NCBI RefSeq assembly: GCF_004010195.1
Contig: NC_057718.1
Location: 50,650,747-50,682,607, forward strand
Length of the DNA stretch: 31,861 nucleotides
Source: Chiloscyllium plagiosum
Taxonomy: Eukaryota
Direction of reading: 5' to 3'
The notes under the pieces were generated by a model. It did no database searches. It saw only the letters and a list, made by a program, of their open reading frames with translations, and was not told the DNA's origin. A program made the translations under genes and the position numbers. Positions within the stretch are counted from its first letter, which is position 1, and each line of letters starts with the position of its first letter. Shown one piece after another: positions 1 through 20,619 of this stretch.

Positions 1-2418
1 CCTAAAGTAAAACAGGTTGCCTCCATCCTTTTGCCTAAGATAAATATTGATTTTAAATATTTTATATAGATTCATAGCTTTGCTTTCACTTGAAGGTTTT
101 TAATTTATATTTATAATATTTACAAGTCTATCACTTAACCTGTAAAGAACTATTTTATGTATGCATCTAACCTCTTTAAAGACCTGAAACATATCTCCTC
201 ACAGAATTCTTTTCTCCAATTAAAACAAGTTCCATTCTGCACTATGAATTTTATTCCAAGAAGTACTTTGATAAATATTGAGGAATGAAAACAATATATA
301 CCAGCAAAAAAAATTAGCTTTAGAAAGAAATGTCATCAGAGGGTACAACAATAAAGGGAAAAAAAAAACCTGTTTTCTCTGTGGGATGCAAGTGGTTTAT
401 TGGAAATCCCAGAGGTATTTGAAAGCTAGTTTGAAAATTATGAGGAAGTAAGAAAGAATAATTATAACATGGGTAGAGTTATAACTTCATTGATAATGTT
501 TTTGAATATTTATCCACCATCAAAATAACTAACAAATGAGTTATAATACTTTAGATTCTGGGAAGAAACAATATAACCATTATAAGTACCTTTTGTTATC
601 ATCCTAGTTGATACTATTACAGGGCAAATCAGATCCCAGACTGAATCTGGCTTTATAAAGCACATTTTTTTTTGCTTTAACAGAGTGGGCTGTTGCTGAA
701 ACATAAGCACACAGTGTTGTGGATTTTGCTTTAACAAAACAGAAGTTTATTAACCAAAGAAATGAAAATAAAATGGAATAAACCAAACTCTCTATTTATA
801 GCACAAATTGAAAGACTTCTTACACAAATAGAAAAAGTATGATTCTTCTAATCCCAAAATATTTCTTTATAAATTGAAAAAAAAATGACAGTCTTTGTGT
901 AGTACCCAAAATATATTCCTGATACAGTACCCAAGAATACTTTTTGTTTAGTACCTAAGAACACCAGTGATATAGTCCTCAAAACCAGAATCCCCGTCTC
1001 TAACAGCTCAGGAGTTTTAAGTCACTCATGAGTCTAACTAACAAATTAGAATGACACGTTGCTTATTTCTGAAGCTACTATACACTTGAGCTTCAATGTA
1101 CCCAACTTTTATAACCTATTTAGGATTTAACCCAAACTTTTTGCTCCAAGACTAACACTAACTCTTTGTTCTCTAGTAATACAGTTTCACTACATTTTTC
1201 CCGTCTTGGGTGTATTGGTTCATACAGACATCTGCTTCCAAGGCCTTCACAGGACTATTCAAAACTCAAGTGAAATTTGGAAAAAAAACTTTATCTCATG
1301 TAAAGATGTTTCTCTTAAGATTCAAAATAAACCTCTCCTGACCTTGTAACTAGAGTTCATTTATCGTGTTCAGTACTGAAACCCTACCATTGAACACAAA
1401 AAGCCATGACTTCTAAAGTTAGGCCTTAGCATCTATTTTAAATGAAATCATCATGGTGACAGAAAAATTTGTAAGCTAATAATTAACTTCAGAAACAGTG
1501 AAACCAGATATTTCTCGCTAACCCAGAATCTAAGAATCTAAAGTTACAATGAAAGACATCAAAAATATATGAATGACACAGTTTACATCACACTTTGAAA
1601 AGAAGGTTCTAGTTGCGTATCTGAAATCCATGGATAAATGAACACTGAGATTGTTCTCTACGAAGATGATCCACATTCAGATGTGGACAAAACATTTTTT
1701 CAACATCAAATCACATTTCATTTCACTTCATACCAATATATGCTGCAATTTCCCTCCAGGATACCATCATCACTGAGCAGCGCTGACCTCCCAGCCTGAC
1801 CTCTTTTGCAAGGATCTCTAATCTGCACATAGGACCTAATGCTACAATGAAAGAAATTGCTAATGGGATCAAATATACCCTGATGATCTCGAAAACATTG
1901 TCTTCTCTGAGTGAGCCATGAAGGGAGATCTGCAAACAATAGGAAGGCAATAGAGAGGAAGAAGAAAATTCAGTTTAAATATGACAATAGATGTCTATTA
2001 ACTGTCATCTGCTTTTATAAATTACAATAGTAGATGTTTTAATTAACTGATTTATACAGCAAAGAAATAAATACTATCATAAATGAATTGTAATTGGAAA
2101 CATCGGCAAAAGGTCACTTTTCTATGATTTGTTGTTATTACCTAAGCAACATTATTGAGTTGCACCATGACAAGTAGAGCAATTCTAAGTTGATTAGTGT
2201 CCAATAATATGCATCTGAAACTATTGCCGGAAGGCTGTGCTTTGATTTGCACTATTGACATTATTGTTGTCCACTGACACTTTCTCAAATACCACCCTTT
2301 CAATACCATTTATTTCCATAAATATTGTGCTTGAAAGAGCAAGAGTTATCAACATTGAGACACAGAACACAATTATAGCAAGAAGCATCAATATTAATGT
2401 TAGGTCCAATAATATTAC

Positions 2419-3637
2419 TAAAAATCACACAACACCAGGTTATAGTCCAACAGGTTTATTCAGAAGCATTAGCTTTTAGAGCACTGCTCCTTCAGTTGGT
2501 TGTGGAGTAGGAACATAAGACACAGAATTTACAGCAAAAGATTACAGTATCATGCAAGTAAAATGATATATTTAACTAACTCGATTGTTGTTCAACTGTT
2601 CATCTTTTAGAATGGGTTACAGGTTTCAATTCATTAGTATGTAAATCCCAGAACTTCTTTTAAGTCACATTCTCAAGATATGTTAGGGGTTCATCAAAAA
2701 AAAAGGTGCCATCTCAACTCAGGCAATGCCTTAAAAGGTGTAAGGTCAGAATCTGTCTGTATCCCAAACTTGACTCAGACTGGTTCTATTTCCAAAATGG
2801 AATTTACAAAATATTATATGGATTGACTGCCTGCATTGACTGCCTATGTGTTGTGTATTATTTGAGCAAAATAGAATGTATCTGTAAATGTAATTCTGCA
2901 AATTCAAATTCACCCCATAAACTTATATATGTATGTGCATGCAGGAGACAGAGGGAGGGAGTGAGTGTGTGCATATGAGTATGTGTAGTTCACTGTGAGT
3001 GCATGTGAGAGAGTTTGTACATGTGCAAGCTTGGTAAAGTGTATGTGTGAGTGTGATGGTGTATAAGCCTGTGAGAGGATGCACACGTGACTGTATGTGT
3101 AGGGGGTATATGTGTACGTGTATGAGGGAGAGCATGTGTATTAGAGAGGGCCTGTGTGAATGTGTGATGATGTAAGAGTGTATGTGTATGTGTGCTTGTG
3201 TATGTGTGAGAGAGTGTATAGTGTAGTGGGGTCACCTGTACTGTGATAGAACCAGTCTGACTCAAGATTGGGATACAGACAGACTTTGACCTCACACCTT
3301 TAAGGCATTGTCTGAGCTGAGATGTCACCTTTTTTCATAAAACCTTAATTTATCTTGAGAATGTGCTTTAAAAGAAGTTCTGGGATTTATGTTTTAATGA
3401 ACCAAAACTTATAACCCATTCTAAAAGACAATCGAGTTTGTTAAATATATCATCTTACTTGCATGACACTGTATTCTTTTGCTATAAACTCTATGACATA
3501 TAGTCCTACTCCACAACCACCTGGTGAAGAAGCAGTGCTACAAAAGCCAGTGCTTCCAATAAACCTGTTGGACTATAACATGGTGTTTTGTGATTTTTAA
3601 CTTTGTCCATCCCAGTCCAACACCTGCTCCTCAACAT
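2419..3637 (+). mobile_element. Non-autonomous Penelope-like element (family A) with inverted pseudo-LTRs
   Basis: 2419-2789 is the reverse complement of about 3246-3599. The right arm extends about 37 nt further. Degenerate HHR at 3518-3552 (CAC-CTGGTGA-A-GAAGC-AGT-GCTAC-AAAAGCCA-GTG). Flanked by caataatattac (2407-2418) and caataatattgc (3638-3649). Confidence 0.85.
2925..3230. repeat. Degenerate (TG)n/(AG)n low-complexity tract inside the PLE hairpin spacer
   Basis: Continuous gtgtgt/gagaga/tatgtg runs; explains the His/Thr-rich ORFs in the track. Confidence 0.9.
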
Positions 3638-3954
3638 CAATAATATTGCAAAATGTCTGCTGTTTGGTATTTTAGCTGAATTCTAAATGTAGTTTATACA
3701 CATTTACAATTTCATAATAAATAAGAGGTTTTGTGACTTATTCTGAGCCTGAAACAGTGCATGAACTTGCAGCACCCAATTCTACACACAGAGTTTGTCA
3801 GAACCATCACTCGTCTTGTTACTTATTGAACACTGAGAAATTTGAGCTGATTAATGTACATCAACATGGAGTTGTAAAGGGTAGGTTATGTCTATCAACA
3901 TTTACGTTCTACCTTTAACATAGTAAAATGTATCAATTGAGATGCTTCACAGGA

Positions 3955-4548
3955 GCATTATCAAAGTCACAATTGACATGATATGGAGCTGTGACAAAGG
4001 TAATGTATTTCTCTTCATCCTTGTGGTCCTGTTTGCAGCCTTCAATATGACTGACTACACCATACTCCTCCAATGCCTCTTCACTGTTATCCAGCATGAT
4101 GTGACTGTCCTCACGTGGCTTTATTCTCATTTAGCTAATCGGGGTATTTAACAATGGCTCCTGTTTCTGCTCCTAAATCATCATCTCAGGTATGTGCACA
4201 AATTCTACTTATTTTGTATCTAGTGCTTCCTCTCAACAACATAATCTGAAAACATGCTTTCAAATTCCATAAGTATGTTGGTGACACCCAACTCTACCAC
4301 AATGACACTTTCTCAGCACTTGCATTATTTTGAAATTATCAGATTTCTTGTCAAAAATTCAGTATTAGATGTGTAGGAATTTCCTCTAATTAAATTTTAT
4401 AAAGACAGAAAACAAATATATTTGATATCCCTTACAAGTTTCATCTTCCCAGTAACTCCCTGGTAACTCCACTCCCTGGAAACTACATGAGGCTGAATCT
4501 GACTATTCTCAAGTGTCATCTTTGACTCCCAGGTGAGGTTCTGACCAC
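3955..4548 (+). mobile_element. L2-clade LINE, degenerate RT region
   Basis: Translates to DKGNVFLFILVVLFAAFNMTDYTILLQ (cf. LLDLSAAFDTVDHxILL), FHKYVGDTQLY at about 4265-4297 (cf. YADDTQLY), and PGNYMRLN near 4475. Confidence 0.8.
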
Positions 4549-4549
4549 A

Positions 4550-5528
4550 TAGTGCAACCGGAATCAGTGCTGGAGCCACAATTATATGCAATATATAATA
4601 ATAGCTTGGATAAGGAAAGTGAATGTACTACAGCCAAGTTTCCAGGTGACACAAAAATAGATGAGAAGGCAAGTGGTGAGCAGAACTCCGAGTCTGCAGA
4701 TGGATATATACAGGTTAAGCAAGTGGATAAAGGTTCGGCAGATGGAATGTAATGCAGGAAAGTGTCAGCTTATGCAATTTGGTATGAAGGATTGAGGAAC
4801 TAAATGTGGAGAAAAAAAAAACAGAGAAAACTACAGCAGAGATGGATTTGGGAGATGTTATGCACAAATCACAAAAAACTCGCATCAAATTTAGCAGGTA
4901 GTGGGGAAGATTGATCTTTATTTTAAAGGAAATGGAGCATAAAAATAGTGAAATCTTGCTAAAACTACAAAAGACCACAGCTAGAATAGTGTGAATAGTT
5001 TTGGGCCCCATGTCTAAGAAAAGACCTATTGATATTGGAGGCAGTCCAGAAGAGGTTGCCTCAGCTGATACCAGGTGTGGAGGAATTGTCTTTTTCGGAG
5101 AGACTGAGTAGGTTGGGCCTGTACATATTAGATATCAGAAGAATGTGGGGTGATCTTTTGAATCATACAAGGTTTTAGAAAACTTGAAAGGATAGGTGTG
5201 AAAAGGTTATTTCTGCTTATGACAGAGTCTAGACAAGAGGGCATAGTGCCAGAATAAGAAGTGGCACACTTAAAGGAAGAGGTGAAGAACAATTTCTACT
5301 CTCAGAGGGTAATAAATCTTTGGAATTCTTGACCAGAGAGGGTTTTAGGTATTGGGTTGTTAATTATATTCAGTGTTGAGACAGATAGATTTTTAATCAA
5401 TAAGGGAATCGTGGGTTATGAGGAACAGGGGAAAAGTGGAGTTGAGGGTTATTAGTTCACCCATGATCTCATTGATAGGTGGAGCAGACTCAATGTGCTA
5501 ACTGGCCTGTTTTAGGTCTGTGGTCTTA
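4550..5528 (+). mobile_element. Old 5'-truncated CR1 LINE (RT C-terminus and 3' UTR), inserted in the L2
   Basis: QPESVLEPQLYAIYNNSLDKESECTTAKFPGDTKI (cf. PQGSVLGP...KFADDTKI), followed by CR1 C-terminal remnants with many stops and frameshifts. Confidence 0.9.
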
Positions 5529-5779
5529 GCTGCGACAATAGCCAACATGGCTCAGCTGATAATGCTTCTGTATCCGAAATCAGCAAACTAACAGACCTAT
5601 TCCAGAGCTTGTAAACTGTGGATGACCCATTCAGGTGACTCAAAGCAGGTTATTAATCAACTTTCAATTCCTTCTAACACACCAAGTAAAAAGCATGAAG
5701 ATACAAATATATCTGCAGCACTGTTAAACATATTTCTAGTCCATAATGCTGTATCACACTGCTGCTATTAGCTGCTAAG

Positions 5780-5975
5780 GTTTTGTGGTTATATCATCTC
5801 TAACTTGACTATTCCTTCACAACCCTGCTGGCCTGAGCACTACCCTCTGCTTGTTATCTTCACCCATCACTGATCACCATTGATCTACAGGGACCCGTGA
5901 TTGAACAAAAATCATTATTTTCGAATCTCTCATGCCCTCACTGTCCCATCTCTGTAATGTCTTCTAGCTTTTTTT
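5780..5975 (+). mobile_element. L2 C-terminal fragment, probable continuation of 3955-4548
   Basis: atctctaacttgactattcc...gctggcct (cf. TSRLDYSNALLAGL), cacccatcac...tgatctaca (cf. PITPVLADLH), cccatctctgtaatgtcttc (cf. PYLCNLL). Heavily decayed. Confidence 0.55.
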
Positions 5976-6082
5976 GCCTGGTCTGCTCAAAACAAAATTC
6001 TGGATTACTGGTGTTTCCAGCGATGGACTTTCAAATGGCAGAAGTTACTGGAAGTAATGAATAACTTTATGCCCGTTTTTCT

Positions 6083-6311
6083 TTTCTCACAGAGAATGGT
6101 GGGTGTATGAAATGAGCTGCCAGTGGAGGTGGTGGAGGCTGGTACAATGACAGCATTTAAAAAGCATCTGGATGATATATAAATAGGAAGGGTTTAGAGG
6201 GAAATGGGCCAAATGCTGGCAAATAGGACAAGATTAGGTTAGGATATTTGGTTGGCATGGACAGGTTGGACTGAAGGGTCTGCTTCCATGCTGTATATCT
6301 CTATAACTCTA
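6083..6311 (+). mobile_element. CR1 3' end fragment
   Basis: Matches the reverse complement of 13241-13430 plus 11101-11159; ends ctctataactcta, a CR1 octamer-type tail. Confidence 0.9.
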
Positions 6312-6329
6312 CCGTTAATATGCAAGTAT

Positions 6330-6870
6330 TATGCAAAAAGTGGTAGAAATTTGGAACTCTCTTCCAGAGATGAGAATTGATATTTCTGGGTTCATAAGTT
6401 TAAATGTGGGATTGATAAGTTTTTAACATTAGAATCCCTACAGTGTGGAAACAGGCCATTTGGTCCCAAGAAATCCACACTGACCCTCCGAAAAGTAACA
6501 GACTCATTCCCCTGCATTTACTCCTGACGAATGCACCGAACACTATGGGCAATTTAGCATAGCCAATTCACCTGACCTGCACATCTTGGACTGTGTGAGA
6601 AAACTAAAGCACCGAGAGAAAACCCACATAGACACAGCAAGAATGTGCAAACTCCACACAGATGGTCACCCAAGGCAGGAATTGAACCTGGCACTGTGAG
6701 ATAGCAGTGCTAACCACTGAGCCACCCTGTCACCCCAAAGTTCTTTGTCATTGAACCATATTAAGGAATATAGGGCAATGATTTCTATATAGGTTTGGAT
6801 CATGGATGAACAAATGCCTCATTGAAAGCAGATCCACTTCCCATTGTAAATGACCTACTCATGTTTCCAT
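6330..6870 (+). mobile_element. Older CR1-like 3' end fragment, interrupted by a SINE
   Basis: caaaaagtggtagaaatttggaactctcttcca reads QKVVEIWNSLP. Resumes after the SINE with a candidate TSD aagttttt (6417-6424) / aagttctt (6738-6745). Confidence 0.65.
6428..6736 (-). mobile_element. HE1-like tRNA-derived SINE
   Basis: Minus strand: A box tggctcagtgg, B box ggttcaattcc, core tgtgtggagtttgcacattct, CR1-like tail ggcctgtttccacactgtagggattct. Confidence 0.92.
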
Positions 6871-6990
6871 AACCTGAGAGGAAAGGAAGTGCAAGTTGGG
6901 ATAGATTTGACGTCAATCACCATTGAACCAAATGCCAATTATACATGTTTCCTGAATTTCATTTTTACTTAGTTCAACCTAGACCATTTT

Positions 6991-7342
6991 ATAGAATCCC
7001 TACAGTGTGAAAGCACGCCATTCAGTCCATCATATCCATACTGACCCTCTGAAGAGCATCCTTTCCAGACCTATCCTCCTATCCTATTCCTGTAAACATG
7101 CTATTTCCCATGACCTATCCACCGAACCTACACATCCCTGGACACTATGGGACAATTAAGCATAGCCAATCTACCTAACCTTTACAGGTTTGAACTGTGG
7201 TAGGAAACCAGAGAAATCAGAGGGAACCTGAACAGACATGGGGAGAATGAACAAACTCCACACAGTCAGCCGAGGATTGAATCAAACCCAGGTCCCTGGT
7301 GCTGTGAGGCAGTGGTGCTGAACACTGAGTCACCATGCAACC
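6991..7342 (-). mobile_element. HE1-like SINE
   Basis: Colinear with 6428-6736 and 24756-25075, more diverged. Confidence 0.92.
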
Positions 7343-7770
7343 ATTAACTATCATTCAATTTGTGTTGAGAAGATAAGTGCAGGTATGTGAAGTTCAATCT
7401 TTAAATGGTTGCAATACAGGTGTGAAAAAAGTAAGCTGGGATGAGAGCAAAGAAGCAACGAATGTTGAGGGAAATAGTGTGTGATGAGAGTAGATGATGT
7501 TTGCACATGAGAGATAAAGCATGGGCATGAAAATGTGAGCATTACCTCATGATTATATGCTGAGCAATGTAGCGGACTGAATGTCTTCATTCAGAGTAGT
7601 GGAGGAAGGAGGTTAAAGATGAGTTTTGAGATATTGATGAGAAAGCTAGAAAGATATAGACGTGTTCCTTCCTTTGCTCCTCTTGGGAGATCATTGACCC
7701 TCCTTTATTTTTATCCATTGAACCAGATCATTGGAACGATAGTGAAACTGACCTTTTAGTCAGTTCTGTA

Positions 7771-7965
7771 AAAGGAATCCCTGATTTATAAACATCTGAC
7801 TTAACGAACACTCATGCTTACGAACATGATCCCCTAAAGGAGTGTAATTTTGAACATCTAAGATAAAAATGTTTCCTGTACTTACAAATGGCTATTTTGT
7901 ATTGTCTTGCATTTTATTGCAACTTGCACACAAATCAACTGAAGAACATAACGGGAGACTGCCTG
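7771..7965. mobile_element. Degenerate Tigger/pogo-like MITE
   Basis: TA on both sides (7769-7770, 7966-7967). The right end read on the minus strand is caggcagtctcccgttat; the left end aaaggaatccctgatttat is a weak match. Internal repeated (a)cttacgaac-like motifs. Confidence 0.45.
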
Positions 7966-10900
7966 TATATGTTTGCCTGACTGAGGATGCTCTTGCAGGG
8001 GCCTGTAAAGTGTGCTTTGCTTGGTCTTCACTTCTCAACGTAGCAACTCCAAGGTGATATCAAGAAAGTTAGAAACAGCCTTTCAAATCATCTCTGCAGA
8101 GGTTCACAGAGAAGTAGAAATGTGCAATCTCCATTCCTTCTAACATTTCTCAATGTGTTTATATATCCTATTATTTATCATTCAACTCTGCACATCTTGT
8201 GCAGAAATAATGCAGCAATGCCCTTAATTTAACCTTTATGTTCTACTTTAAATTTGTTAGCTTCTTCTGAATTTCCCTCAGATCTATTGAACACTCTGCC
8301 TTATTATTTTGCGTTCTTAACAAATTTGCGTCTCTCTTCGTCCAATTCAGCTCCTTTTTGTCAGTAACAGAGTTATTGTAGTCAGGTCCTGATCAGTAAA
8401 ATGAATTCTTCTTAATTTGGTCGATCACACTCATTGAAAATTTGACATTCTAACATTGGATGATGGAATTTCTTTGGCACTTGCTCTATTGTTTAGCTTG
8501 AGACTAGCTTAAAACAACATCTTCATTATTATTGACCATTATGTCTGCAGACAAGTTTGTATTCTCAGAAATGGCACATTTCCTAACTGTGAGACCTAAC
8601 AATTTCAATTTCATGTATTTTTCACGGAAATCAAATGTACATTTCGCTTCAACTAATGGAAATATGTTTAAGGAACACTGTAGTTCAAAAAAGGTTGTGT
8701 GGGACTTTTGTTATGGTGAGAGAGCTGCATGCCAATGTTACTTGCGTTATACAAAATAAATTATTACCCAACCAGTGTATAATGGTTATTGGAACATTTT
8801 TAAAGTGACATTGACAGCCAGTTTCTATTGCTTTTTGGTAGTGTTATTCCACATTCAATTACTCAGCTTCAACGAGTTACACAATTGCATGGTTTCACTC
8901 TGAACTTCCTATTTCCCTTTAGTGACATTTTTGATAGAAGATTTTGTGTAATTCATTACAGATTATTGTTAGGGATTATTCTGAACTTTGACTGATGTGG
9001 AAAACTGGCAATACCAAAATGTGCACCCATTTATTCGGTACTCAGTATTGCTTTTCATTGTTTTCAGAAGGTCATGTGTATAATGGACATCTAATCCACT
9101 GCTGCTCAATGTCTGATGTCACCAAAGTTGAAAATTACTCTTGAAGCTTAAGGGTTAATGGAATGCTTTAATATCTCTTAGTTTAGTATACATTCAGTTC
9201 CTTGGAGTTGGTTGGCACGTTTTAAAGGCATGAATCCACACATTGTTTGAATCACACACACAATGTTGCTGTAGATATGGGAGCAAAGAAAAATCATTTC
9301 CTCATTGCATTTCAATATTTAGGAGACATGCATGTGGAAATAGGTCTGTTGACAGCAAATCACTTGTGAAATTGTTTTTTCTGTTCCCGACGTTAGAATT
9401 TAACATCTGTGGCAGCAAGGCAACCACGCAAATGCAATTTTCAGGAACCTTAATATCAAAGTACATCGAGGGACTGTTTCAAGGAAGCCACTCATCAGGC
9501 TTTATGGAAGTCAAATAAAAGTGTTCTTTTGCAGCTTACACAACTATTTAAGGACATACCTCTCTTCAATGCACAATCAGCTATCAGAAATGTGTGGGGG
9601 AGATTTCCTCAGTATGCTCTGTCTACAATAGAGTATAAACCTTTTCCTTTAGGAATGTCTTTTTCATGTTAGTGCACATTAGTTCACAGAGTAAACTTTC
9701 CTTCTGCGGCCATTTATTACAATGAGGTATTTATATACAGCTGCAATCATGAGATAAATATTCAATAGCATATGAGAGTTCAGCTTTAAAGACAGTACAG
9801 ATGGTACAGATCTGGTAATACGCATGATTATTTATAATGGTATGACAGCCAGGCACATACACCCAGATTTCCTGAAGTAAAGCCAAGGTAGGAAGGCTTT
9901 TAAAAATTATGGGTGAGCTTTGATTTCAGGGTTCTTGCACCCATTGCAATTTCAGGAATTTTGTTGGCTCAGAATAAGAGTGTGTTGACAGGCTCATGTA
10001 CAGCATTCAAATTCTTGTTGATTCAGTTGCAAAATGGTCATTTCACACTCTCATGTAATTTTGATGGATTTGGACAAAGTCAATCAATAGACCTGGTTCC
10101 CAGCACCTCAGAGGACACACAAACTACAAGAGGACTTTGTCAGGAAACAAATCAAAAAGATCCATCTGACGTTCCCTTTGAATTATATTTCCTTTCTTCA
10201 CCTTTCATAAAACTGCCAAGTAATCATGCCATTCATATAATCAATGTCAAAAGGCCATTATCTATTTCACGATTGGGGAAAGGTCACTTTTCTAAAAGTT
10301 TTTGTTAATGCTGCAACATTATCGAGTTGCGGAATGACAAGCAGAGTACTATTGCATTTTTTAAAAATCTCTTCTAAAAATTGATCTTTTACAAGGTAGT
10401 AAATGCGTCTCCAGTTATCATGTCCCTCTGCATCGACAGAGACAGTCCCATGATGACAGCCAAATAGAAAACCATTCTTGGAGCTCAACCAAATATTCAA
10501 AATGAGGTTATCTGACAACTGTATGCTCGGAAACAACTCGAATTGATTGTTTTAGAATAGAAAATGATCAGAACTCTGCAGAGCACACCAGCTATGATCT
10601 AACCATTCCTTTATTTAGTTCTTATGTAAACTCCCTCCTTTTGTATTTCAGGCTTCGGATTTTGCCATCAGAGGTCAAAGTTGGAAGACAGGATTGTGTC
10701 ACAATCTCATCTGGTTGCCAGGATGTCAAGAAATCTCCTGTTGGAAGTATACTATGTGCTGGACACAGTTGTAAGATCTCAATCAGCAAGCTTGAAAGTA
10801 TCATCAGAGGTGTGATAGCCCTGGAACAGATTCACTGAAAGGGGAATGTCTGCTTCTATTTATTTTCAGAAATTTCAACGATTCCTTACCTGTACCAACA

Positions 10901-11100: not shown

Positions 11101-11159
11101 TATAGAGTCATAGAGTCAAAGAGATGTACAGCATGGAAACAGACCCTTTGGTTCAACCC
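11101..11159 (-). mobile_element. Displaced 3' tail of the CR1 at 13241-14867
   Basis: (atagagtc)x2 octamer tail plus gatgtacagcatggaaacagaccctttgg; continues seamlessly into 13255 once the PLE is removed. Confidence 0.9.
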
Positions 11160-12950
11160 AGAGACAGGCAAGGCTGGGGCCCATACGGGTGCCCATCGCT
11201 ACCCCTAAGGTCTGGATGAAGTGGGAGGATTCAAAGGAGAAATTGTTAAGGGTGAGGACCAGTTCAGCCAATCGAATGAGAGTGTCAGTGGAAGGGTACT
11301 GTTGGGGACGTCGGGAGAGGAAAAAAAAGGGGGGTTTAGAGGCCCTCGTCATGGCGGATGGAGGTGTAGTGGGATTGGATGTCCTTGGTGAAGATGAGGT
11401 GTTGGGGGCTGGGGAAACGGAAGTCTTGGAGGAATTGGAGGGCATGAGTGGTGTCTCAAACGTATGTGGGGAGTTCGTGGACTGGGGGGATAGGACAGTG
11501 TCGAGGTTGGTAGAGATGAATTTGGTGGGGCAGGAGCATGCTGAGACAATGGGTCGGCCAGGATGGTCAGGCTTGTGGATCTTGGGAAGGAGGTAGAACT
11601 GGGTGGTGCGGGGTTCCCAGACTATGAGGTTGGAAGCTGTGGGTGGGAGATCTCCTGAGGTGATGAGGTTCTGTATGGTCTGGGAGATNNNNNNNNNNNN
11701 NNNNNNNNNNNNNNNNNNNNNNNNNNNNNNNNNNNNNNNNNNNNNNNNNNNNNNNNNNNNNNNNNNNNNNNNNNNNNNNNNNNNNNNNNNNNNNNNNNNN
11801 NNNNNNNNNNNNNNNNNNNNNNNNNNNNNNNNNNNNNNNNNNNNNNNNNNNNNNNNNNNNNNNNNNNNNNNNNNNNNNNNNNNNNNNNNNNNNNNNNNNN
11901 NNNNNNNNNNNNNNNNNNNNNNNNNNNNNNNNNNNNNNNNNNNNNNNNNNNNNNNNNNNNNNNNNNNNNNNNNNNNNNNNNNNNNNNNNNNNNNNNNNNN
12001 GTGTGAGTGCAGTGGGGAGGGGGGGGGGATCCTGTGACTGGAGTGGGCCTGGCGGTAGGGGGAATGGGGGTGGAGTCATGAACGGGGTGATGTTCCCCTC
12101 AGGGTTCTGGGGAGCGGGGATGGTGACAGTGGGACCTGCGGAGGTTGGGGGGGGCGGGGAAATGTGTCGGCAGAATGCAGGTGAGTGGGGTGGAAGTGGT
12201 GGTGAACACGGCAGAAGGGGGGCAGAGGTCACTAAGCTTGTGACATCAGCGATGATGTGAGGGGCGGAAGTGATGTCATGTGTGGTGCATGAGGAATTGT
12301 GAGGGGCGGAAGTGACTGTGGAAATGGCCATGATGGGGCTCAAGTGACATCATTGATCACCCTGGGGATGGTAGCTGCACCAGCCGCATGGCTAATGGTG
12401 TCCGAGCAGTTCCAGAGGCCGGGGGAATCTTCTGGAATGTTTGAGGAGTGCTAGTTATGGAGGTGGGTGTATAAAAGTTTGTTGTACTTATAGTTTTTGA
12501 TGTTTGAGATGGTGTTGAAATACTGTTTGTTGAGAGTATGAATTCTCCTGAGGATGTAGTACAGAAGGGGTCCTTTGCAGTTTTGAGAGAATGTGGCCCT
12601 CAGCTGAGGCAGTGCTGACTGTAGAGAGGTTAGTGCCGGCGCATTCCTGCAAGTGTGGAGCGGAGGATCCTGAAGGAGAATCGTTGCTGGTGTTTTTGAG
12701 TCTGTAGTCTGTACTGTTTGTCCTGTTCGGGTCCAAACTCTGCTGGTTTAAAGGTGGTCCGGAGTTCATGTGGGATCAGTTGGTTACGGAGGCAGGCACT
12801 GAGGAAGCAAATATGGCTGTGGTAATGAGTCTGTTTCAAGACATGATTGAGGAGCTTCAGGGCAAAGGAGATGACCTGGGAGTTGCAGTGAGAGAGAGAC
12901 TCACTGAGATTCTTGTAGAGAGAGGAGGAGAACTTCTTCAAAGCAGGCAT
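11160..12950 (-). pseudogene. PLE ORF remnant (N-terminal domain, Pro-rich linker, RT up to motif B); no GIY-YIG domain present
   Basis: MPALKKF...HICFLSACLRNQLIP; FYLLPKIHKPDHPGRPIVSACSCPT at about 11525-11600; LAELVLTLNNFSF...GVAMGTRMGPS. Contains stops and frameshifts and is truncated at 11160. Confidence 0.9.
11689..12000. other. Assembly gap (312 N)
   Basis: Run of n characters. Confidence 1.
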
Positions 12951-13110
12951 CCTTGCAAGAGGATTCACAGTTAGGTTAAAATCAACTCGGTAAAAACAAG
13001 GACTGCAGATGCTGGAAACCCGAGTCTGGATTAGAGTGGTGCTTGAAAAGCACAGCAAGTCAGGCAGCATCCAAGGAGCTGGAAAATTGATGTTTCCTGA
13101 TTCATCAGGA

Positions 13111-13146
13111 TTCCTGATGAAAGGCTTTTGCCCAAAATGTCGATTT
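13111..13146 (+). ncRNA. Minimal type I hammerhead ribozyme motif, decayed
   Basis: CTGATGA (13114-13120), A, stem II AGGC-TTTT-GCCC, then AAAATGTC, which is GAAACGTC with two CpG-type transitions (one is G12A). Predicted cleavage after 13141. Confidence 0.75.
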
Positions 13147-13240
13147 TCATGCTCCTTCGATGCTGCCTGACTTGCTGTGCTTTTCCAGCACCACTCTAAT
13201 CCAGACTTGGGTTTCCAGCATCTGCAGTCCTTGCTTTTAC

Positions 13241-14867
13241 CTTTGGACCAACCCTTCCATGCTGTCCAGATATCCCAAAGCAATCTAATCCCAACTGCCA
13301 GCACCCAGCCATATCCCTCCAAACCCTTCCTATTCATATACTCACCGAAATGCATTTTAAATGTTGCAATTGTACTAGCCTCCACCACTTCCTCTGGCAG
13401 CTCATTCCATACACAAAACTCCATCTGCATGAAAAAGTTGCCCCTTAGGTTTCTTTTATATCTTTCCTTTCTCACCCTAAACCTATGCCCTCTAGTTCTG
13501 GACTCCCCGACCCCAGGGAAAAGACTTTGTTTATTTATCCTATCCATGCCCCTCATAATTTTGTAAACCTCTATAAGGGCACCCCTCAGCCTCTGACGTT
13601 CCAGAGAAAACAGCCCCAGCCTGTTCAGCCTCTCCCTATAGCTCAAATCCTCCAACCCTGGCAACATCTTTGGAAATCTTTTCTGAACCCTTCCAAGTTT
13701 CACAACATCTTTCCGATAGGAAGGAGACCAGAATTGCATATAATATTCCAACAGTTGCCTAACCAATGTCCTATACAGCCACAAGATGACCTCCCAACTC
13801 TAGTACTCAATACTCTGACCAATAAAGGAAAGCATACCAAATGCCTTCTTCACTATCCTATCAACCTGAGACTCCACTTTCAAAGAACTATGAACCTGCA
13901 CTCCAAGGTCTCTTTGTTCAACAGCACTCCCTAGGACCTTACCATTAAGCGTATAAGTCCTGATGAGATTTACTTTCCCAAACTGCAGCACCTCGCATTT
14001 ATCTGAATTAAACTTCATCTGCCACTTCTCAGCCCATTGGCCCATCTGGTCCAGATCCTGTAGGAATCTGAGATAACCCTCTTTGCTGTTCCTTCAATTT
14101 TGGTGTCATCTGCAAACATACTAACTATACCTCTTATGCTCACATCCAAATATTTTATATAAATGATGAAAAGTAGAGGACCCAGCACTGATCTTTGTGG
14201 CACAGGCCTCCATTCTGAAGAACAACCTTCCATCACCACCCTCTGCCTTCTACCTTTGAACCAGTTCTGTATCCAAATGGCTAGTTTTCCCTGTATTCTA
14301 TGAGATCTAACCTTGCTAACCAATCTCCTGTGAGGAACCTTATCGAACGCCTGACTGAAGTCCATATAGATCACATCTACCACTCTGCCCTCATCAATCC
14401 TCTCTGTTACTTCTTCAAAAAACTCAATCAAGTTTGTGAGACATGATTTCCCACCCATAAAGCCATGTTGACTATCCCTAATCAGTCCTTACCTTTCCCA
14501 ATACATGCACATCCTGTTCCTCAGGATTTCCTCCAACAACTTGCCCACCACCGAGGTCAGGCTCACCGGTTTATAGTTCCCTGGCTTGTCGTTACTACCC
14601 TTCTTAAACAGTGTCACCACGTTTGCCAACCTACAGTCTTCCGGCACTTCACCTGTAACTACCAATGATACAAATATCTCAGCAAGGGGCCCAGGAATCA
14701 GTTCCCTAGATTCCCAAAGAGTTCTCGGGTACACTTGACCAGGTCCTGGGGATTTATTCACCTTTGTGCATTTCCTCCTCTGTAATATGGCATTTTTCAA
14801 GATGTCACCATCTATTTCCCTACAATCTATATCTTCCATGTCCTTTGCCACAGGAAATACTGATGCA
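13241..14867 (-). mobile_element. 5'-truncated CR1 LINE (RT domain and 3' UTR)
   Basis: KPGNYKPVSLTSVVGKLLE, GKSCLTNLIEFFEEVT, DFSQAFDKVPH, FADDTKI, YRTLVRQLLEYYMQFWSP; frameshifted. Confidence 0.97.
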
Positions 14868-14892
14868 TTTTCTGTCCTGCCTCCATGGTTAT

Positions 14893-15006
14893 TCCCAAAA
14901 CGTCGATTTTGCTGCTCCTCAGATTGCTGCCTGAACTGCTGTGCTTTTCCAGCACCACTCTAATCTAGATTCTGGTTTCCAGCATCTGCAGTCCTTGTTT
15001 TTACCT
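14893..15006 (+). mobile_element. Solo PLE family B pseudo-LTR fragment
   Basis: cccaaaacgtcgatttt...gtccttgtttttacct is colinear with 13131-13241; retains only the 3' half of the HHR. Confidence 0.9.
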
Positions 15007-15632
15007 AAGCTCAATTACTTCCTAGTTGCAACAAACTTTGATATAATGCACTCATTGGAAGGCATGCAAATTACAGACTAAAGTGAAATTCTAGTTAAGA
15101 AAGAGTTCATTCTCCTATATAGGCCAATGCCACAAGCAAGCTTGAAGCCAATTTTGTACTAAGTGCTGAGTTCATGTAATTTACAAATAGAAACATCCGC
15201 AGGTGTAGTGATGAACTAGGTCCTAATCTCACCGAGTTGGTGACAAGACATTTCTCATCTTGGACTGCTTTATAAATCAAATGTATTCTGAATGGGAGTC
15301 TACGGACTCAAAACGTTAGATCTTATATTGTTTTGGCTAAATCTGAGTCATGTCAACATGTCTGGCGTGATTCTCGACTCAAAGCCCAGCAAGTTTTCTT
15401 GCAGTATCTTACCAAACTCGCTCATAATTACATATTATGCACTATGGCATCATGACATCCAATTTCCATCCATAGCTATACACTATCTCCGGAGCAAACT
15501 GCCAGTCAGCACATATCCCAGAATGCACTGACATGTGTTGTACCTGTGCCATCTTTAAAAGCCTGCTGTGCATTTGCTTAAGCATTGTCAGTGTGAAGAT
15601 GCCCTGCCTGATTCCTACTATTTGTCCCACAC

Positions 15633-15860
15633 ATGGTAGACAGGGGAAAGCAGTGCCTTTCTCTGTAGGCAGAGTCCTGGAGGTCCTTTTGGGTAGGATG
15701 GGGTCAGTATAGGACTTTCTCTTCCTCCATGATCAGCAGCGGAGATCACGCCAGATCATGCCAGCCAGGTCCAAGGTTGCTATCTTGATTCAAGCACTCT
15801 CTGTCATCTGAAGAAATGCTGAGGAAGTAGGAAGAAGATCAATGCTCTCTGCATCAAGGC
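15633..15860 (+). pseudogene. PIF/Harbinger-type Myb/SANT-like ORF remnant
   Basis: With frameshifts: GKAVPFS...LEVLL...FLF..DQQRRS...PARSKVA...ALSVI*RNA..RKKINAL (cf. PRF...LEVLV...AWxEVA...R...QCRKKxNDL). Confidence 0.5.
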
Positions 15861-15992
15861 TCATGCTGTACCACTTTCACTATTGTCTGTGATATCTTAT
15901 CTACTTGTCCCAATCCCTGACACGACAATGCCCTCTGTGCCATCTACTCAATTGCTCAGAACACTTCTGCGTCTTAAAGGGAACATGTTTAA

Positions 15993-16351
15993 AGGGGTGG
16001 TGGCATTATCATTAGACTGTTCATCCAGGGGTCCTGGGTTCAAATCCTGTCAAAGCAGATAATGGAACTTGAATTAAATTTTTAAAAATCTGGAATTAAG
16101 AATCTACTGATGACCATGAAACCATTATTGATTGTAAGGGGAAAACCAATCAGGCTCTCAAATTTCCTTCAGGAAAGGAAATATGCTGTCATCACCTGGT
16201 CTGGCCTACATATGACTCCAGACCCACAGCAGTGTGGTTGACTCAACTGCCCTCTGAAATGGCCTAGCAAGCCACTCAGTTCAAGGGCAGCTAGGGACAG
16301 GCAGTAAATCCAGGCCAGCCAGTGACCCCCATGTGCAACAAGTGAATAAAA
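15993..16351 (+). mobile_element. tRNA-derived SINE, second family (not HE1)
   Basis: B box ggttcaaatcc at 16037-16047; body homologous to 30486-30905 (reverse); tail shared with the LINE at 28058; ends tgaataaaa. Confidence 0.85.
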
Positions 16352-17216
16352 TGAAATAATAGTGCCATCCACAGAGACATAACCATTATCACTCAACTTC
16401 TCCACTCAAACTTCTTTGTTTCCCAATACTGCTCTCTAGTGGCTGGTGTGATTGGTGGGCAGAATGGCATTCAGATAGATTTTGTTGGTTGGTAGAGATG
16501 TGTGAGGCTTGTGAAGTGGGCAATTTGGGTGAGGCAGACGAGATGGGTAAATGGGAGAGGTGGATAGGTGTTAAAGTGAGTTTTTATGTGGTGGATCTGG
16601 CATATTCCAATCAAGTTGTAACAGAAGATGCAGTGGGGTGGGTGGTGTGGGGGTGACTGGCAGATAGTTGGGTAGTGGGACTAGTCAGTTTGGGCCAGGA
16701 CAGGGTAATCATTTGGTGGGGATTTAATGTGGTTGGGAAGCGTAATCAATGCTGTGATATTGCACTAAGAGTTGAGCATGCTAATGAAGCAGGGACCAGA
16801 ATAAGAACATGTGATCAGACTGCAGCAAAGCAGTTGTAACAGTATGCATGTATGCTTCTGTGGAATTGCATGTATTGAACTTCTGTAATTATTCTCTCTG
16901 ATGAGCAAACCTGTCTTAGATTTTCAAGCAAACTGTGCTGTTAACCAGCCCTGTATGAGAGTGATAGTTTTGTGAGAGGAAAATAACACAAGAAGCCTGC
17001 AGTTGTGTTAGGTCAGGAGGGGAAGTCAAGAGGTGGTCCTTTCTGGCCAGGAGTCTGTAATCAGGCGGTAGAGTATGAGTGAAATCTGAACACTGGTCAG
17101 GTCAGCTCTCAAGGGGTAATTTTTTGTTGGGGTTTCAGGGGCAGAAGGGTGGTTTGGCATGAGTTTGTGAGGGTAGCTGGTTTAGGTCAGAGAATATCAG
17201 GGGGTTGTCATGAGGG

Positions 17217-17279
17217 GATGATTTTCCTGCTCCTCGGATGCTACCTGACCTGTTGTGCTTTTCCAACACCATACTACTC
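17217..17279 (+). mobile_element. About 60-bp PLE family B micro-insertion with TSD
   Basis: gattttcctgctcctcggatgctacctgacctgttgtgcttttccaacacca matches 13142 onward; TSD ttgtcatgaggg (17205-17216) / ttgtcatggggg (17280-17291). Confidence 0.88.
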
Positions 17280-17756
17280 TTGTCATGGGGGTAGTCAAGT
17301 GGTCAGGTGTACTTGAGTTTCTAGGGCAGTAGTCAAGGGGTTAGTGTGAATGATTGGAATGTCAGCTCTGTAATTGTCCAAGAATCAAACTAGATATTTT
17401 TCTATCTAAGTTTTCCAAGATATGTACATGTTAAAGTACACCAGAACTAACATTAACTCAGAACTGGAGATACTTGTGAAGTGAGCAGAGGAACAGGGGA
17501 ATTATCCATGAACATGAAGACTTCCTGCAAAATTCCCACAGATGTTAACATTTGGGACTGCTGTAGGATCCCAATATCTAGAATGGGTCCATACATCCAG
17601 TCTCCAACAATCTGGAGACCAAGGTCAAAGACACTTGTAACAATTTCTAAAATTAAAAGTCAAATTTCCAGAATTAGATGAACTGTCTCTCTATCCCTGG
17701 AGTGAAATCAAGCCCAAGTATGTAGACTATTGTCCTCCGTATCGATACTGGCAATA

Positions 17757-18064
17757 GGCAGCACAATAGCTCAATGGTTAACACTGCTACCTCACAGTGA
17801 AAGGGATCCAGATTCAATTCCAACCTTGGGCAACTGTGTGAATGGAGTTTGCATGTTCTCACTGGGTCTGCATGGGTTTCCTCCCACAGTCCAAAGACAT
17901 GCAGGCTAGGTAAATTGGCCTTACTAAAATTGCCCAATATCATTCAGGAATGTGGAGTAGGCACAGGGTAAACGTCCATGCAGGGTATGGAGCTGGATAC
18001 TCTTCAGAAGGATGGTGTAGACTTGATGAGCTGAATGGCCTCTATCTGTACGGTAGGATCTATA
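17757..18064 (+). mobile_element. HE1-like SINE with a small internal deletion
   Basis: ggcagcacaatagctcaatggttaacactgctacctcacag...gattcaattcc...tggagtttgcatgttctc...cccacagtccaaagacatgcagg. Confidence 0.9.
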
Positions 18065-18554
18065 TATTATATTGGACAGTCAATAGTGATTGTCATTACT
18101 TAACAGCTATATTTAATGTCAATATGTTACCCCTTCACATATTCTTAATTTATCTCTTGCAAATGTTTATTTATGGTGGGATGCTCAGACAATAAAAAAA
18201 TTATCTTTTCTTGAAAGTGAAGATGATCATTATTCCGCCATACCAACGGGTGGGGAGATAGTGTAGAGGAATGGAAAACTATTTCAGAGACTCAGTCATG
18301 GACTGTATTGTTTTATTATTCAATTCTGGAGTGCTAGGAGGCTTGTGAGAATTCAGCCAATGTCATTATTCATGTGCTCAGTCAGTGGTCAGCTCTTTAT
18401 TCAGGTTGCTGGAGGCATCGTAGTTTGTTCCCATCTTCAGTCAATGTTCACACACTTGGGCTGTCTGACAGGGAATACTGGATGTCATTGGGAATGCAAA
18501 CCTGACTACTTCTTCCCCTCCAGGGGCCCGCTATTGAGTCACTCTTTCTTAAGC

Positions 18555-18830
18555 AGTAGCTTAGAATTGGGGATAACTTGCTTCCACTCTGGTTCAATGG
18601 ATTCTGACATGTCTGTTAATTCTAATGCATGATCTGCAGGCTCTGCCACATGCAAAGCAGGCAGAAGGTTTGAGAAGATGAGTTGTTGGGAGGCTTATAC
18701 ATTTTGTTTAACTTCACTCTTGCAAATTTCAGTGCAAGGATGTTGATGTGCTCAATGCTTTCCCAAATCAACCTATTTTTCTTAGTTGGCCAGGGAATCT
18801 CATGCATTGCGGGAAATGTTAAACCTCTTT
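18555..18830 (-). mobile_element. RTE-clade LINE 3' end remnant
   Basis: Minus strand about 18653-18594 reads ACGRACRSCIRINRHVRIH*, matching the RTE C-terminal CGRxCxSRIGLxSHxRxH motif, followed by a short 3' UTR. Confidence 0.7.
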
Positions 18831-18994
18831 AATTAAGATACTGACATTAGAATTAACAAGAGATGAACTGGTGATTCTGAGCTGGCAGCCCCCAATAATA
18901 ACTGCGAGGTCTGTTTACATCAGGATTGGGGCAAGTAGCAATTTGAGAGCGACATTCAAAATATGTTTTAGTGTAACACCAGCCCTGTGTTTTG

Positions 18995-19120
18995 CTGAAC
19001 TTGAAACTTTAACTCTGTTTTCCCTCCACAGATGCTGCCAGACCTGCTGAATTTCTCAGGTTCACCAGCAATTCCTGTTTTGATTCAGATCTTTAGCATC
19101 CACAGTTCTTTCATTGATAT
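18995..19120 (+). mobile_element. PLE pseudo-LTR fragment, third family (C)
   Basis: gaaactttaactctg (decayed GAAACGTT half of an HHR), then cagatgctgccagacctgctga...ccagca...agcatccacagttctt, distantly similar to family B. Confidence 0.7.
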
Positions 19121-19445
19121 TAAGAGTGTTTCCTAGTTTGTTTATTTTCATTTCTGTTATTAAACATTTTCGTTAGTTTTATTGTTAAAGCAGAAACTGC
19201 AACATTGCATACTTATCTTTCAGTATAACATTACCTTAATAAAACTAATATAAAATTAAAATAATGTGATCTAGCCAGCTAGGTTCCTGTTAGGAATCTA
19301 ACTTCTCCAGTATTCATGTTAACTGGACACTCCCCCGTAACATTTGGGACCATGTAATCATAGTAGGGACTTCATACTAATTTAACAATCCATCACTAGA
19401 TACTCGGAGCAGTGAGGAACCAAAGAGAGTCACCCTTCTCCACAG

Positions 19446-19563
19446 CTTTAATGCATTGTCTGAGCTGAGATGTCACCTTTTGTTCTAAACCTGTTGGACT
19501 ATAACCTGTATTGCATGATATCTAACTTTCTGCACCCCAGTCCAACATTTGCACCTCTACATC
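19446..19563 (+). mobile_element. Internally deleted PLE family A fragment
   Basis: gcattgtctgagctgagatgtcaccttt matches 3305-3332 and is joined directly to taaacctgttggactataac...cccagtccaaca (3560-3637). About 225 bp including the HHR is missing. Confidence 0.88.
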
Positions 19564-19674
19564 TTTAAATTTTGTACTTTTTAAAATTTGGAATGAAATG
19601 CTTAATTCCCAGGAAGTTACAAGGAAGGTTGTATATTTTGAAAGTGAGCAATTTGATGCCTATTGTGAACTCTG

Positions 19675-19776
19675 TTAAACATCTCACAACACGGGGTTAT
19701 AGTCCAACAAGTTTAATTGGAAGCACTATCTTTCGGAGCGTCGCTCCTTCGTCAGGTGATTGTGTGCTCTGTTTGG
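19675..19776 (-). mobile_element. PLE family A micro-insertion with perfect 15-bp TSD
   Basis: Colinear with 2419-2505; ctattgtgaactctg at both 19660-19674 and 19777-19791. Confidence 0.92.
19724..19758 (-). ncRNA. Minimal type I hammerhead motif, near intact
   Basis: Minus strand CAC-CTGACGA-A-GGAGC-GAC-GCTCC-GAAAG-ATA-GTG: core boxes intact, perfect 5-bp stem II, stem I CAC/GTG. Confidence 0.8.
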
Positions 19777-20424
19777 CTATTGTGAACTCTGCTTACTGTA
19801 GGTTCCAAAAATGTGCAGACAAACCAAAGTCGAGGGTTTGTTTACAAGTGAAGCCTGATTGAAATGTGGATTAGGAGCCAGGTATCAATGACAAAAGTCC
19901 TCTTCCTACCAACAAATACGTGATTGGTTATCAAGTAGCTAATCAGCTTCTTGTGTGAATAAGTTAGATATGCATAAATTAGCCTTTTTATCAGTAAAAC
20001 AGCCACCTATTCCTCTTGTAAGCAGTGGAAGTATTCAGAAAAGGAAAGTCAAAGGAGAAATATTCAGATCAGCAAGAATCAACCCATCAGGTCTTGCAAA
20101 TAAAATTGATATTTCCAGTTTTTCCTACATCTGTGTATATTTTTTTTCCTTCTTATGTATATCCACATGTGTACAAGTGGGAGTTTCTCAGAGGTTTAGA
20201 GTTTTAAATTTAAGAGTTTAATTCATTTAATGTACTTAATTAGCTGTAGCTAGTATCTAATTACCTATAATAAATAGCAGTTCTTGTGAAATACAAAAAC
20301 CTGATCTGCACTTTCTATCAATCTGGGTCTGAAATTCAGCTCTTTTGGAATTTTATGTTTTTTTTTAAAATCTTTAATTTCTGTGATGACTGCAGAATTG
20401 CAGAACTGGATTTCCATTACACTA

Positions 20425-20569
20425 GTCGAGAGTGTGGTGCTGGAAAAGCACAGCAGGTCAGATAGCATCTGAGGAGCAGGAGAATCGACGTTTCGGGCAA
20501 CAGACCTTCATTAGGATTCCAGCACCACACTTTTGACTCTGATCTTCAGCATCTGCAGTCCTCCCTTTC
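20425..20569 (+). mobile_element. Mini PLE family B hairpin insertion
   Basis: Antisense arm 20425-20516 includes the HHR; sense arm 20517-20569; TSD ttccattacacta (20412-20424) / ttccagtacacta (20570-20582). Confidence 0.9.
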
Positions 20570-20619
20570 TTCCAGTACACTACCTCAGTGAGTCATGGCA
20601 ATAGTCCATGACCCACAAT

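Follow-up and report, generated by a model that had tools for sequence, protein, structure and literature searches.

Why do the truncated Penelope-like elements (PLEs) of this shark locus stop at two recurring points 3' of their hammerhead ribozymes, and what do these points have to do with the inverted, head-to-head copies among them? We addressed this question in a 31,861-nt stretch of the Chiloscyllium plagiosum genome (contig NC_057718.1; here "the window"), for which a sequence-only reading had proposed that both points are priming sites and that each nicked target strand primes at a different one, a programmed twin priming that would explain the hairpins.

Two PLE families and where their copies end

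Family A is represented in the window by the following features:

2407..2418, no strand: target duplication on the left of the hairpin, paired with 3638-3649 (10/10 match, 12 nt with one mismatch)
2419..2789, minus strand: left arm with the short outer end (+51), 82% identical to 3246-3599 in inverted orientation
2790..3245, no strand: unpaired 456-nt hairpin centre, CA/TG-rich, single copy in the window
3246..3637, plus strand: right arm with the long outer end (+88), from the inverted alignment to the left arm
3638..3649, no strand: right target duplication of the hairpin (partner 2407-2418)
19441..19562, plus strand: single arm with the long end, its hammerhead removed by an internal deletion, no duplication above chance
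19660..19791, minus strand: single-arm insert 19675-19776 with the short end (+52), in an exact 15-nt duplication

Both hairpin arms carry decayed hammerheads, with 2470 and 3549 as the bases immediately preceding the cut, and the hairpin centre matched none of 120 family B relatives at better than E 0.78. The single-arm insert holds an intact minimal hammerhead at 19727-19755 (no core mismatches, a 5-bp stem II and a helix I), the only strict match in the window against 0.05 matches per shuffled window, and family A thus has in its terminal repeat the ribozyme expected of an endonuclease-bearing PLE. No RT or GIY-YIG ORF of this family was recognisable in the window, and Pfam was blank in the three frames tried.

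Family B and a related stub occupy the following positions:

11145..11159, no strand: left target duplication of a large inverted insertion, within the 3' tail of a CR1 element (partner 13240-13254)
11159..13109, minus strand: left arm, from tblastn to the proteins P0001, P0006 and P0056
13110..13241, plus strand: right arm with the long outer end (+98 to +101), 92% complementary to 12989-13095
13240..13254, no strand: target duplication on the right, sharing 2-3 nt with the element end
14883..15005, plus strand: single arm with the long end (+101), without target duplication, adjoining a truncated CR1 5' end
17205..17291, plus strand: single-arm insert 17217-17279 with the short end, between duplications 17205-17216 and 17280-17291
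18994..19108, plus strand: stub of a third, B-related family with a long-type end, aligning with the family B copies and having the same stem
20412..20582, no strand: hairpin with duplication 20412-20424/20570-20582, from arm alignments

The large left arm has a hammerhead without stem II, a broken ORF and an assembly gap at 11689-12000; it reads through the short and the long site, at about 13021-13024 and at 12989, and ends outwardly inside the RT gene, directly past GVAMG..GPS. Its segment 11155-11688 matches P0001, a protein with RVT_1 (E 6.8e-08), at E 1.7e-62, and the ATG lies at 12950, where residue 1 aligns in 5/7 relatives, with both end sites upstream of it, the long one by 39 nt. 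A TAG resembling a splice acceptor directly follows the long end of this family. Family B therefore encodes a telomerase-like RT in a single ORF, as endonuclease-bearing PLEs do. The DKG motif is present in 10/10 long relatives, its place in the window falling in the assembly gap, while the GIY-YIG motif with two core cysteines and a CX2-5CxxC linker between RT and endonuclease each occur in 9/10 (Pfam finds GIY-YIG in the relatives P0056 and P0097). The window copy stops inside the RT and lacks the linker region, and a GIY-YIG endonuclease of this family is inferred from these relatives; by their linker, family B is putatively Neptune/Nematis-like. Its hammerheads are decayed in the window and fail the strict scan, whereas the loose-end consensus of 30,745 reads has an intact core and stem II, which places a minimal hammerhead in the terminal repeat of this family as well. 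Pfam gave no match in five window fragments, no Rfam hammerhead model matched the window (one chance match, E 0.93), and no match came from exact-motif scans of metagenome and viral contigs or from protein-based scans of prokaryote genomes and viral contigs. Both families show the insertion pattern of PLEs, with a tail, an inverted truncated copy and a target duplication, and the window holds three inverted insertions. The stub at 18994..19108, absent from the sequence-only list, has no target duplication above chance, and its agreement in alignment and stem is that of a copy belonging to the profile that found it.

Among the window copies, outer ends lie at +50-52 (short) and +88 (long) after the hammerhead cut in family A, and at about +60-65 and about +98-102 in family B. 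In family A, the ends 2419, 19675 and 3637 fall at +51, +52 and +88; because the first two copies share a 1-nt insertion, they correspond to +50 and +51 on the scale of the 3637 copy, and the end at 19562/3 has the same ACAT terminus as that copy, equivalent to +88. In family B, ends 17279, 20425, 13241 and 15005 fall at +60, +62, +100 and +101. In the hairpin at 20412..20582, the left arm (20425-20516, minus strand) has the short end at +62, and the right arm (20517-20569, plus strand) starts at +42 and runs to a long-type end at 20569. This end lies 32 nt beyond the position homologous to 20425, one more than the 31 nt first given. Ends agree to 1-2 nt within family A and for the long end of family B; the two family B short ends are 2-6 nt apart. 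The interval between the sites, 37-38 nt in family A and about 32-35 nt in family B, is the known 30-40-nt PLE "tail".

The end positions of the earlier reading thus proved real to within 1-2 nt, as did its identification of the interval with the known tail and its remark that the inserts at 17217 and 19675, bounded by target-site duplications (TSDs), use the short end alone. Its account of family B needed amending: this family comprises two subfamilies, its short end is represented by two window copies 2-6 nt apart, and the end at 13241, correctly placed at the long site (+100), has an inverted partner at about 11159, within the RT gene and away from both fixed sites, that had been missed.

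Read classes, target duplications and a shared stem

Public shark reads were used to test the end classes of family B, family A being examined in the window. Raw read depth is 78,003 at 13058 and stays nearly flat at 30,896-35,403 over 13021-13035, giving a tail-to-core ratio of 0.40-0.45; at the long end over 90% of it is lost, with 2,582 left at 12988. Among the ends listed, loose ends gather at 13036 (22,799 reads), at 12999 (11,928 reads; the second subfamily, with 11 extra element letters) and at 12989, where 8,405 reads have mixed flanks that agree at 0.34. In three organisms, contigs contain the short class, which ends at 13029/13036 and continues into AT-rich flanks of mixed sequence; the long class occurs, among the ends listed, in reads of one organism and contigs of the other two. 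The reads confirm two end classes in family B, the long end sharp and the short end less so, and with a plateau between them the ends are bimodal rather than continuous, as the earlier reading had required. Since the family B short end coincides with the divergence of the subfamilies, part of the pile at 13036 consists of clipped longer copies. Among the joints listed, a recurrent strand-switch joint, 13016/13096, was seen in 175 reads and implies arms consisting of the tail alone. For a genome of 3-5 Gb, the core depth of 78,003, reached with 1,934 Mb of sequence, corresponds to roughly 120,000-200,000 family B copies.

Given these reads, it is very improbable that the true ends are continuous and that the two classes only reflect a small number of decayed copies. 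Only 2-3 copies represent each class in the window, the family B short end is blurred, contig loose-end agreement is 0.37-0.44 against the 0.47-0.54 that a mixture model expects for one sharp end, and there are minor ends at 11159 and in a depth shoulder of 1,900-2,800 at 12855-12973. Against this stand the plateau and the fall at its edge, the recurrence of both classes across organisms, and a probability of chance clustering of about 1% per family (1.4% for A and 0.9% for B under a uniform null, with widths picked post hoc); for family B the artefact reading is already largely refuted. A separate idea, hinted at by the insert 17217-17279, which starts 3 nt before the cut position, was that 5' ends are set by the hammerhead cut; it was rejected, as reads clipped at 13087 and 13096 (agreement 0.76-0.77) mostly continue into stem II.

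Target duplications were scored as matches minus three times mismatches against 300 random pairs, of which 6 reached a score of at least 8, 3 at least 9 and none at least 10. Six of nine element ends adjoin a duplication, and duplications across the insertions measure 10-15 nt. Those at 19660-19674/19777-19791 (score 15, 15/15 match) and 2407-2416/3638-3647 (score 10) are followed by 20412-20424/20570-20582 (score 9; 13 nt, one mismatch) and 17205-17216/17280-17291 (score 8; 12 nt, one mismatch). The pair 11145-11159/13240-13254 scores 7 (15 nt, two mismatches), which 24/300 random pairs reach, but an uninterrupted CR1 tail at 6103-6311 has a single copy of 14 nt of the duplicated sequence. 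No duplication above chance was found at the end 19563 (score 6, reached by 77/300 random pairs) or at 15005 (score 2), and one shared around the CR1 and the 14883-15005 arm was discarded at score 6, the chance level. The short ends at 2419, 19675, 17279 and 20425 all adjoin duplications.

A possible guide for both sites lies in the RNA itself:

3566..3622, plus strand: family A 9-bp stem, 3566-3574 with 3614-3622 (+17..25 with +65..73), enclosing the short site

Its predicted pair probabilities are 0.69-0.85 (shuffle p 0.012), and the stem has p 0.004 in the family A copy 19441..19562. A 7-bp stem in family B, 13159-13165 with 13216-13222 (+18..24 with +75..81), has pair probabilities of 0.93-0.97 and shuffle p 0.076; taken alone this stem is weak (p 0.076 and 0.13). 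One copy has a different best stem (p 0.84), and folds of the whole region barely beat shuffles (z +0.94 to -1.6). The printed RNA of PAc, the Poseidon element of Anolis carolinensis, has a readable 7-bp stem at +21..27/+65..71 by our own count, matching those of A and B. A 7-9-bp stem bracketing the short site thus appears common to both families and the anole RNA, a small addition whose anole part may already appear in the supplement figures of PMC11167929, and it is probably such a pairing, between about +20 and about +70-80, that sets both start sites.

Choice of start site within one insertion

We consider it somewhat more probable than its alternatives combined, at roughly 55%, that these insertions are 5'-truncated copies of endonuclease-bearing PLEs that prime at either of two sites, each event largely independent. 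The endonuclease would cut the two target strands 10-15 nt apart, as the duplications suggest, and the RT would start inside its own RNA, at either of two points that lie 30-40 nt from each other and 3' of the hammerhead. Priming of a single strand would give a single-arm insert, and priming of both, with a separate RNA copy or repeat unit for each, would give cDNAs joined head to head in a hairpin. The site would be picked largely independently at each priming event, occasionally with another start point, and because each event chooses largely on its own, mixed hairpins would be common without programming. For families A and B, we infer internal starts at two sites from end positions that match those of anole Poseidon; the suggestion of the earlier reading that priming occurs at both is supported but already published for the anole element (PMC11167929). 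In the window, single arms flanked by TSDs have the short site only. The arms of the three inverted insertions overlap by about 370, 107 and 20 nt, so two RNA templates ("dual priming") fit better than L1-style twin priming from one RNA, and L1-type twin priming, with its non-overlapping pieces and internal deletion, was set aside for the same overlap. Tail-only arms, as at the 13016/13096 joint, could nonetheless have that L1-type form.

Whether the pairing of a short with a long end is programmed is a different matter, and the earlier proposal holds for the sites without one site per strand being established. In a programmed two-primer mode, a single complex, for example an asymmetric dimer, would assign one stem-presented start site to each nicked strand, so that one always primes long and the other short; we think this unlikely. 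Hairpins with standard ends are mixed in 2/2 cases (those at 2419 and 20425, as first described), the anole protein is a predicted dimer (PMC11167929), the joint in 175 reads implies tail-only arms, and reports of a tail often at one end only (PMC8557442, PMC3846280) could mean real coupling. But two mixed hairpins out of two have a probability of 0.23-0.25 under independent choice, the third inverted insertion (11159-13241) has the long end on one side and stops within the RT gene on the other, and the tail-to-core depth ratio, compatible with about 1:1 site use, fits independence equally well. In vitro, start sites were not seen to differ between the top and the bottom strand, in an assay that left the two strands of one molecule unlinked (PMC11167929). 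Making the second arm by self-priming, or fold-back, at a palindromic junction, with endonuclease resolution leaving a one-sided tail, seems slightly less likely still. This was the view before 2024, put forward in PMC3846280 and PMC8557442; both family B hairpins have AGGA-T-TCC at their centre, roughly 36 nt upstream of the cut, and in the larger one the left arm could have been copied to give the right arm 13110-13241. Purified anole protein, however, initiates at either site of a sense RNA and elongates both target strands (PMC11167929), single arms within TSDs stop at the short site and have no second arm, and each arm of the 20425 hairpin holds sequence absent from the other, so that these are not simple copies, barring a later TTCC-to-TTCC deletion.

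If pairing were programmed, a long-known PLE signature would be explained by an RT complex that primes both strands by design, and the head-to-head insertion with a one-sided tail would be a mode shared by Poseidon- and Neptune-type elements and no accident. The end of PLE integration and the formation of inverted repeats are steps left unvalidated by the 2024 paper (PMC11167929); sharks offer a very large natural sample of such insertions, and the shared stem is indicated as the probable guide of the two start sites.

Comparison with known systems

In our literature search, with most subscription papers outside its scope, none of the listed titles concerned twin or dual priming by PLEs; three papers joining "Penelope-like" and "twin priming" were, by listing, on L1, telomerase RNA or human TEs, and the word "tail" is absent from a 2026 retrozyme preprint. 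Minimal hammerheads in metazoan PLEs (Cervera and de la Pena 2014, PMC4209133) share with 19727-19755 the core, the unpaired base before stem II and the 2-nt helix III stub; the parts of that paper seen by us already note hammerhead pairs on opposite strands 100-700 bp apart, without locating the ends of elements with respect to the cut. In L1 (Meyer et al. 2010, PMC2837659), as in our reading of the shark copies, both nicked strands prime and an inverted insert lies between duplications. L1 twin priming yields non-overlapping pieces with a deletion from one RNA, whereas shark arms overlap as expected of the proposed two-RNA dual priming, and starts lie at the poly(A) tail in L1 and at fixed internal sites in the shark.

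Inverted PLE insertions with the tail at one end only were already described (Arkhipova et al. 2013, PMC3846280; Craig et al. 2021, PMC8557442). As far as the sections consulted go, these inverted-pLTR insertions share with the shark copies head-to-head arms, a one-end tail and junction palindromes, have 8-10-bp duplications and are explained there by self-priming and endonuclease resolution; shark copies, in contrast, are extremely numerous and in most cases stubs of 60-140 nt. The closest parallel is PAc, for which Frangieh et al. 2024 (PMC11167929) showed in vitro, with purified protein on sense RNA, that both target strands are cut and extended and that reverse transcription starts at two sites bounding the tail; the text does not treat the pairing of ends inside one insertion. 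As in families A and B, these sites lie 3' of the hammerhead and targets are AT-rich. The main PAc start, at ORF 111-118, is +82 to +89 after its cut, compared with +88 in A and +100 in B. Both PAc sites lie within the ORF, whereas both family B sites precede the ATG, and family B relatives carry the Neptune/Nematis linker while PAc is a Poseidon. With two start sites already known, the addition made here is mainly their extension to a Neptune/Nematis-like family, in untranslated RNA.

Arm ends and the repeats that carry them

Self-comparison of the window, repeat-rich vertebrate DNA with a gap of 312 Ns at 11689-12000, yielded two hammerhead-bearing repeat families, A and B, and the stub of a third. 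The nine arm ends named in the sequence-only reading all proved real, lying no more than 1-2 nt from where it had placed them, and fall at a short and a long site in each family.

Recurrent ends (+n, nt downstream of the hammerhead cut)
2419 and 19675: family A short end, +50/+51 (1-nt insertions allowed for)
3637 and 19562/3: family A long end, +88
17279 and 20425: family B short end, +60 and +62
13241 and 15005; also 20569 (second subfamily): family B long end, +98 to +101
18994-19108: B-related stub representing the third hammerhead-linked family; it carries the stem found in B, and its end is of the long type

If ends were distributed uniformly, clustering of this kind would arise with a probability of ~1% in either family, the widths having been chosen post hoc. 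Target duplications of 10-15 nt adjoin six of the nine ends, and four score above at least 98% of 300 random pairs. The duplication at 11145/13240 scores only 7 and is confirmed by an uninterrupted CR1 tail, which has these 14 nt once; at the long-ended single arms 15005 and 19563, no duplication above chance was found.

The RT fragment of family B is matched by Penelope-like element (PLE) proteins, the nearest named ones being those of Chiloscyllium punctatum, a shark (91%, across 68% of the query). DKG is present in 10 of 10 long relatives, and the CX2-5CxxC linker and GIY-YIG cysteines that mark Neptune/Nematis in nine. The ATG at 12950 aligns with residue 1 in five of seven relatives, placing both end sites in untranslated RNA. 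Family A has an intact minimal hammerhead (19727-19755) and no recognisable ORF in its window copies, so its PLE membership is based on ribozyme and insertion pattern. One family A copy lacks ~220 nt, hammerhead included, at 19484-19486, where a short ATAAA(A)CC repeat, seen on both sides in the intact copy, suggests a template jump or repair deletion. Another repeat (copies near 30547-30908) opens with CTGATGA, 4 nt and GAAA at 16107-16135; these hammerhead-core-like words, without stem II, are probably due to chance. A CR1 on the minus strand (11101-14870) has its 3' tail split by a family B insertion, and its truncated 5' end adjoins the family B arm 14883-15005. The near full-length LINE at 21640-25970, with several frameshifts, and its insert at 24777-25075 we take to be CR1-type and a SINE, respectively.

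End classes in raw reads and contigs

We aligned a single run of raw reads and contigs in three sets (three organisms) to 12600-13108, the family B arm that runs on into the ORF; 98,247 of 12.9 million reads could be placed. The expectation that ends would be bimodal is supported for family B: two classes are separated by a depth plateau, with depths of 575-905 at sampled ORF positions, 2,582 at 12988, 30,896-35,403 over 13021-13035 and 78,003 at 13058. Among the loose-end piles listed (six per run), those at 12989 (8,405 reads, agreement 0.34 as in unrelated flanks) and 12999 (11,928 reads, with eleven extra second-subfamily letters before mixed flank) are a single long end; the pile at 12989 is absent from those listed for one contig set. 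Further listed piles lie at 13036 (22,799 reads) and 13040 (5,548), and in contigs at 13036 (771, 875 and 1,043) and 13029 (141, 207 and 203). These contig piles run on for 8-12 element letters into mixed AT-rich flank, which puts the family B short end near 13021-13024, with loose-end agreement below that of one sharp end. The two subfamilies part at 13036, so the pile at that position includes reads from longer copies that were clipped. A depth shoulder (1,900-2,800 at 12855-12973, versus <1,000 deeper in the ORF), accompanied by joints of the "goes back" type around 12862-12918, may represent a less frequent set of longer ends, or else partial tandems, in the region of +170 to +230.

In both families the short site lies within the loop of a stem, formed in A by +17..25 with +65..73 (9 bp; shuffle p 0.012 and 0.004, two related copies) and in B by +18..24 with +75..81 (7 bp; p 0.076 and 0.13); in the 15005 copy this is not the best stem. 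The printed RNA of the anole element, Poseidon PAc, has a counterpart 7-bp match (+21..27 with +65..71), and in all three RNAs the long site lies 11-19 nt past the stem. Because stem positions are kept while sequences differ, a common guide structure is suggested, with modest support per family; the figures of Frangieh et al. may already include this stem.

An A at 12988 in 81% of reads gives family B a pyrimidine run and then TAG directly past the long end. The TAG of this splice-acceptor-like site (12986-13002, minus strand) lies 36 nt upstream of the ATG; such motifs have a background of 0.076 per 100 nt in the window, and the strict pattern was not found in the family A tail. A genuine acceptor here would make the hammerhead and both start sites intronic, leaving unspliced RNA as the sole copyable template.

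Origin of the inverted insertions

A third inverted insertion (11159-13241), missed by the sequence-only reading, includes the arm that ends at 13241. Its left arm reads through both end sites into the ORF and stops within the RT gene; thus two of three inverted insertions combine short and long ends and one a long with an internal end. Programmed pairing, in which the two target strands are assigned different start sites, is a fair but rather unlikely hypothesis. Two mixed hairpins out of two are expected with probability ~0.25 if site choice is independent, and the tail-to-core read depth ratio (0.40-0.45) is compatible with both models. The arms are head-to-head and overlap, so two RNAs or displacement would be needed, resembling the "dual priming" of the L1 literature and unlike classic twin priming (PMC2837659).

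Fold-back, or self-priming, is a possible source of the hairpins. The family B hairpins are both centred on AGGA-T-TCC, and palindromes of this kind have been put forward as points of self-priming (PMC3846280). The 20425 hairpin would then be explained only with an additional deletion. The two centres (13100-13120 and 20505-20521) are identical and lie ~36 nt upstream of the cut. The arms that start at -36 and +42, as well as those that reads show starting at +73, open with TTCC, a candidate fixed junction motif or trace of microhomology deletions.

Relation to the published PLE mechanism

In the anole element, two RT start sites were found and both target strands were extended in vitro, the strands not observed to differ in where synthesis began, and the protein was predicted to form a dimer (Frangieh et al., PMC11167929); by our count from that paper, the main start site lies +82 to +89 after the cut. 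The shark ends would correspond to these two start sites, with both target strands priming and the cDNAs joined into a hairpin. Inverted insertions with a tail at one end are described in Arkhipova et al. 2013 (PMC3846280) and Craig et al. 2021 (PMC8557442). With two start sites and the one-sided tail already in print, the core of our finding is published. The shark ends are real and, in the main, ordinary: they add one more case of a known feature, the PLE tail with its two start sites.
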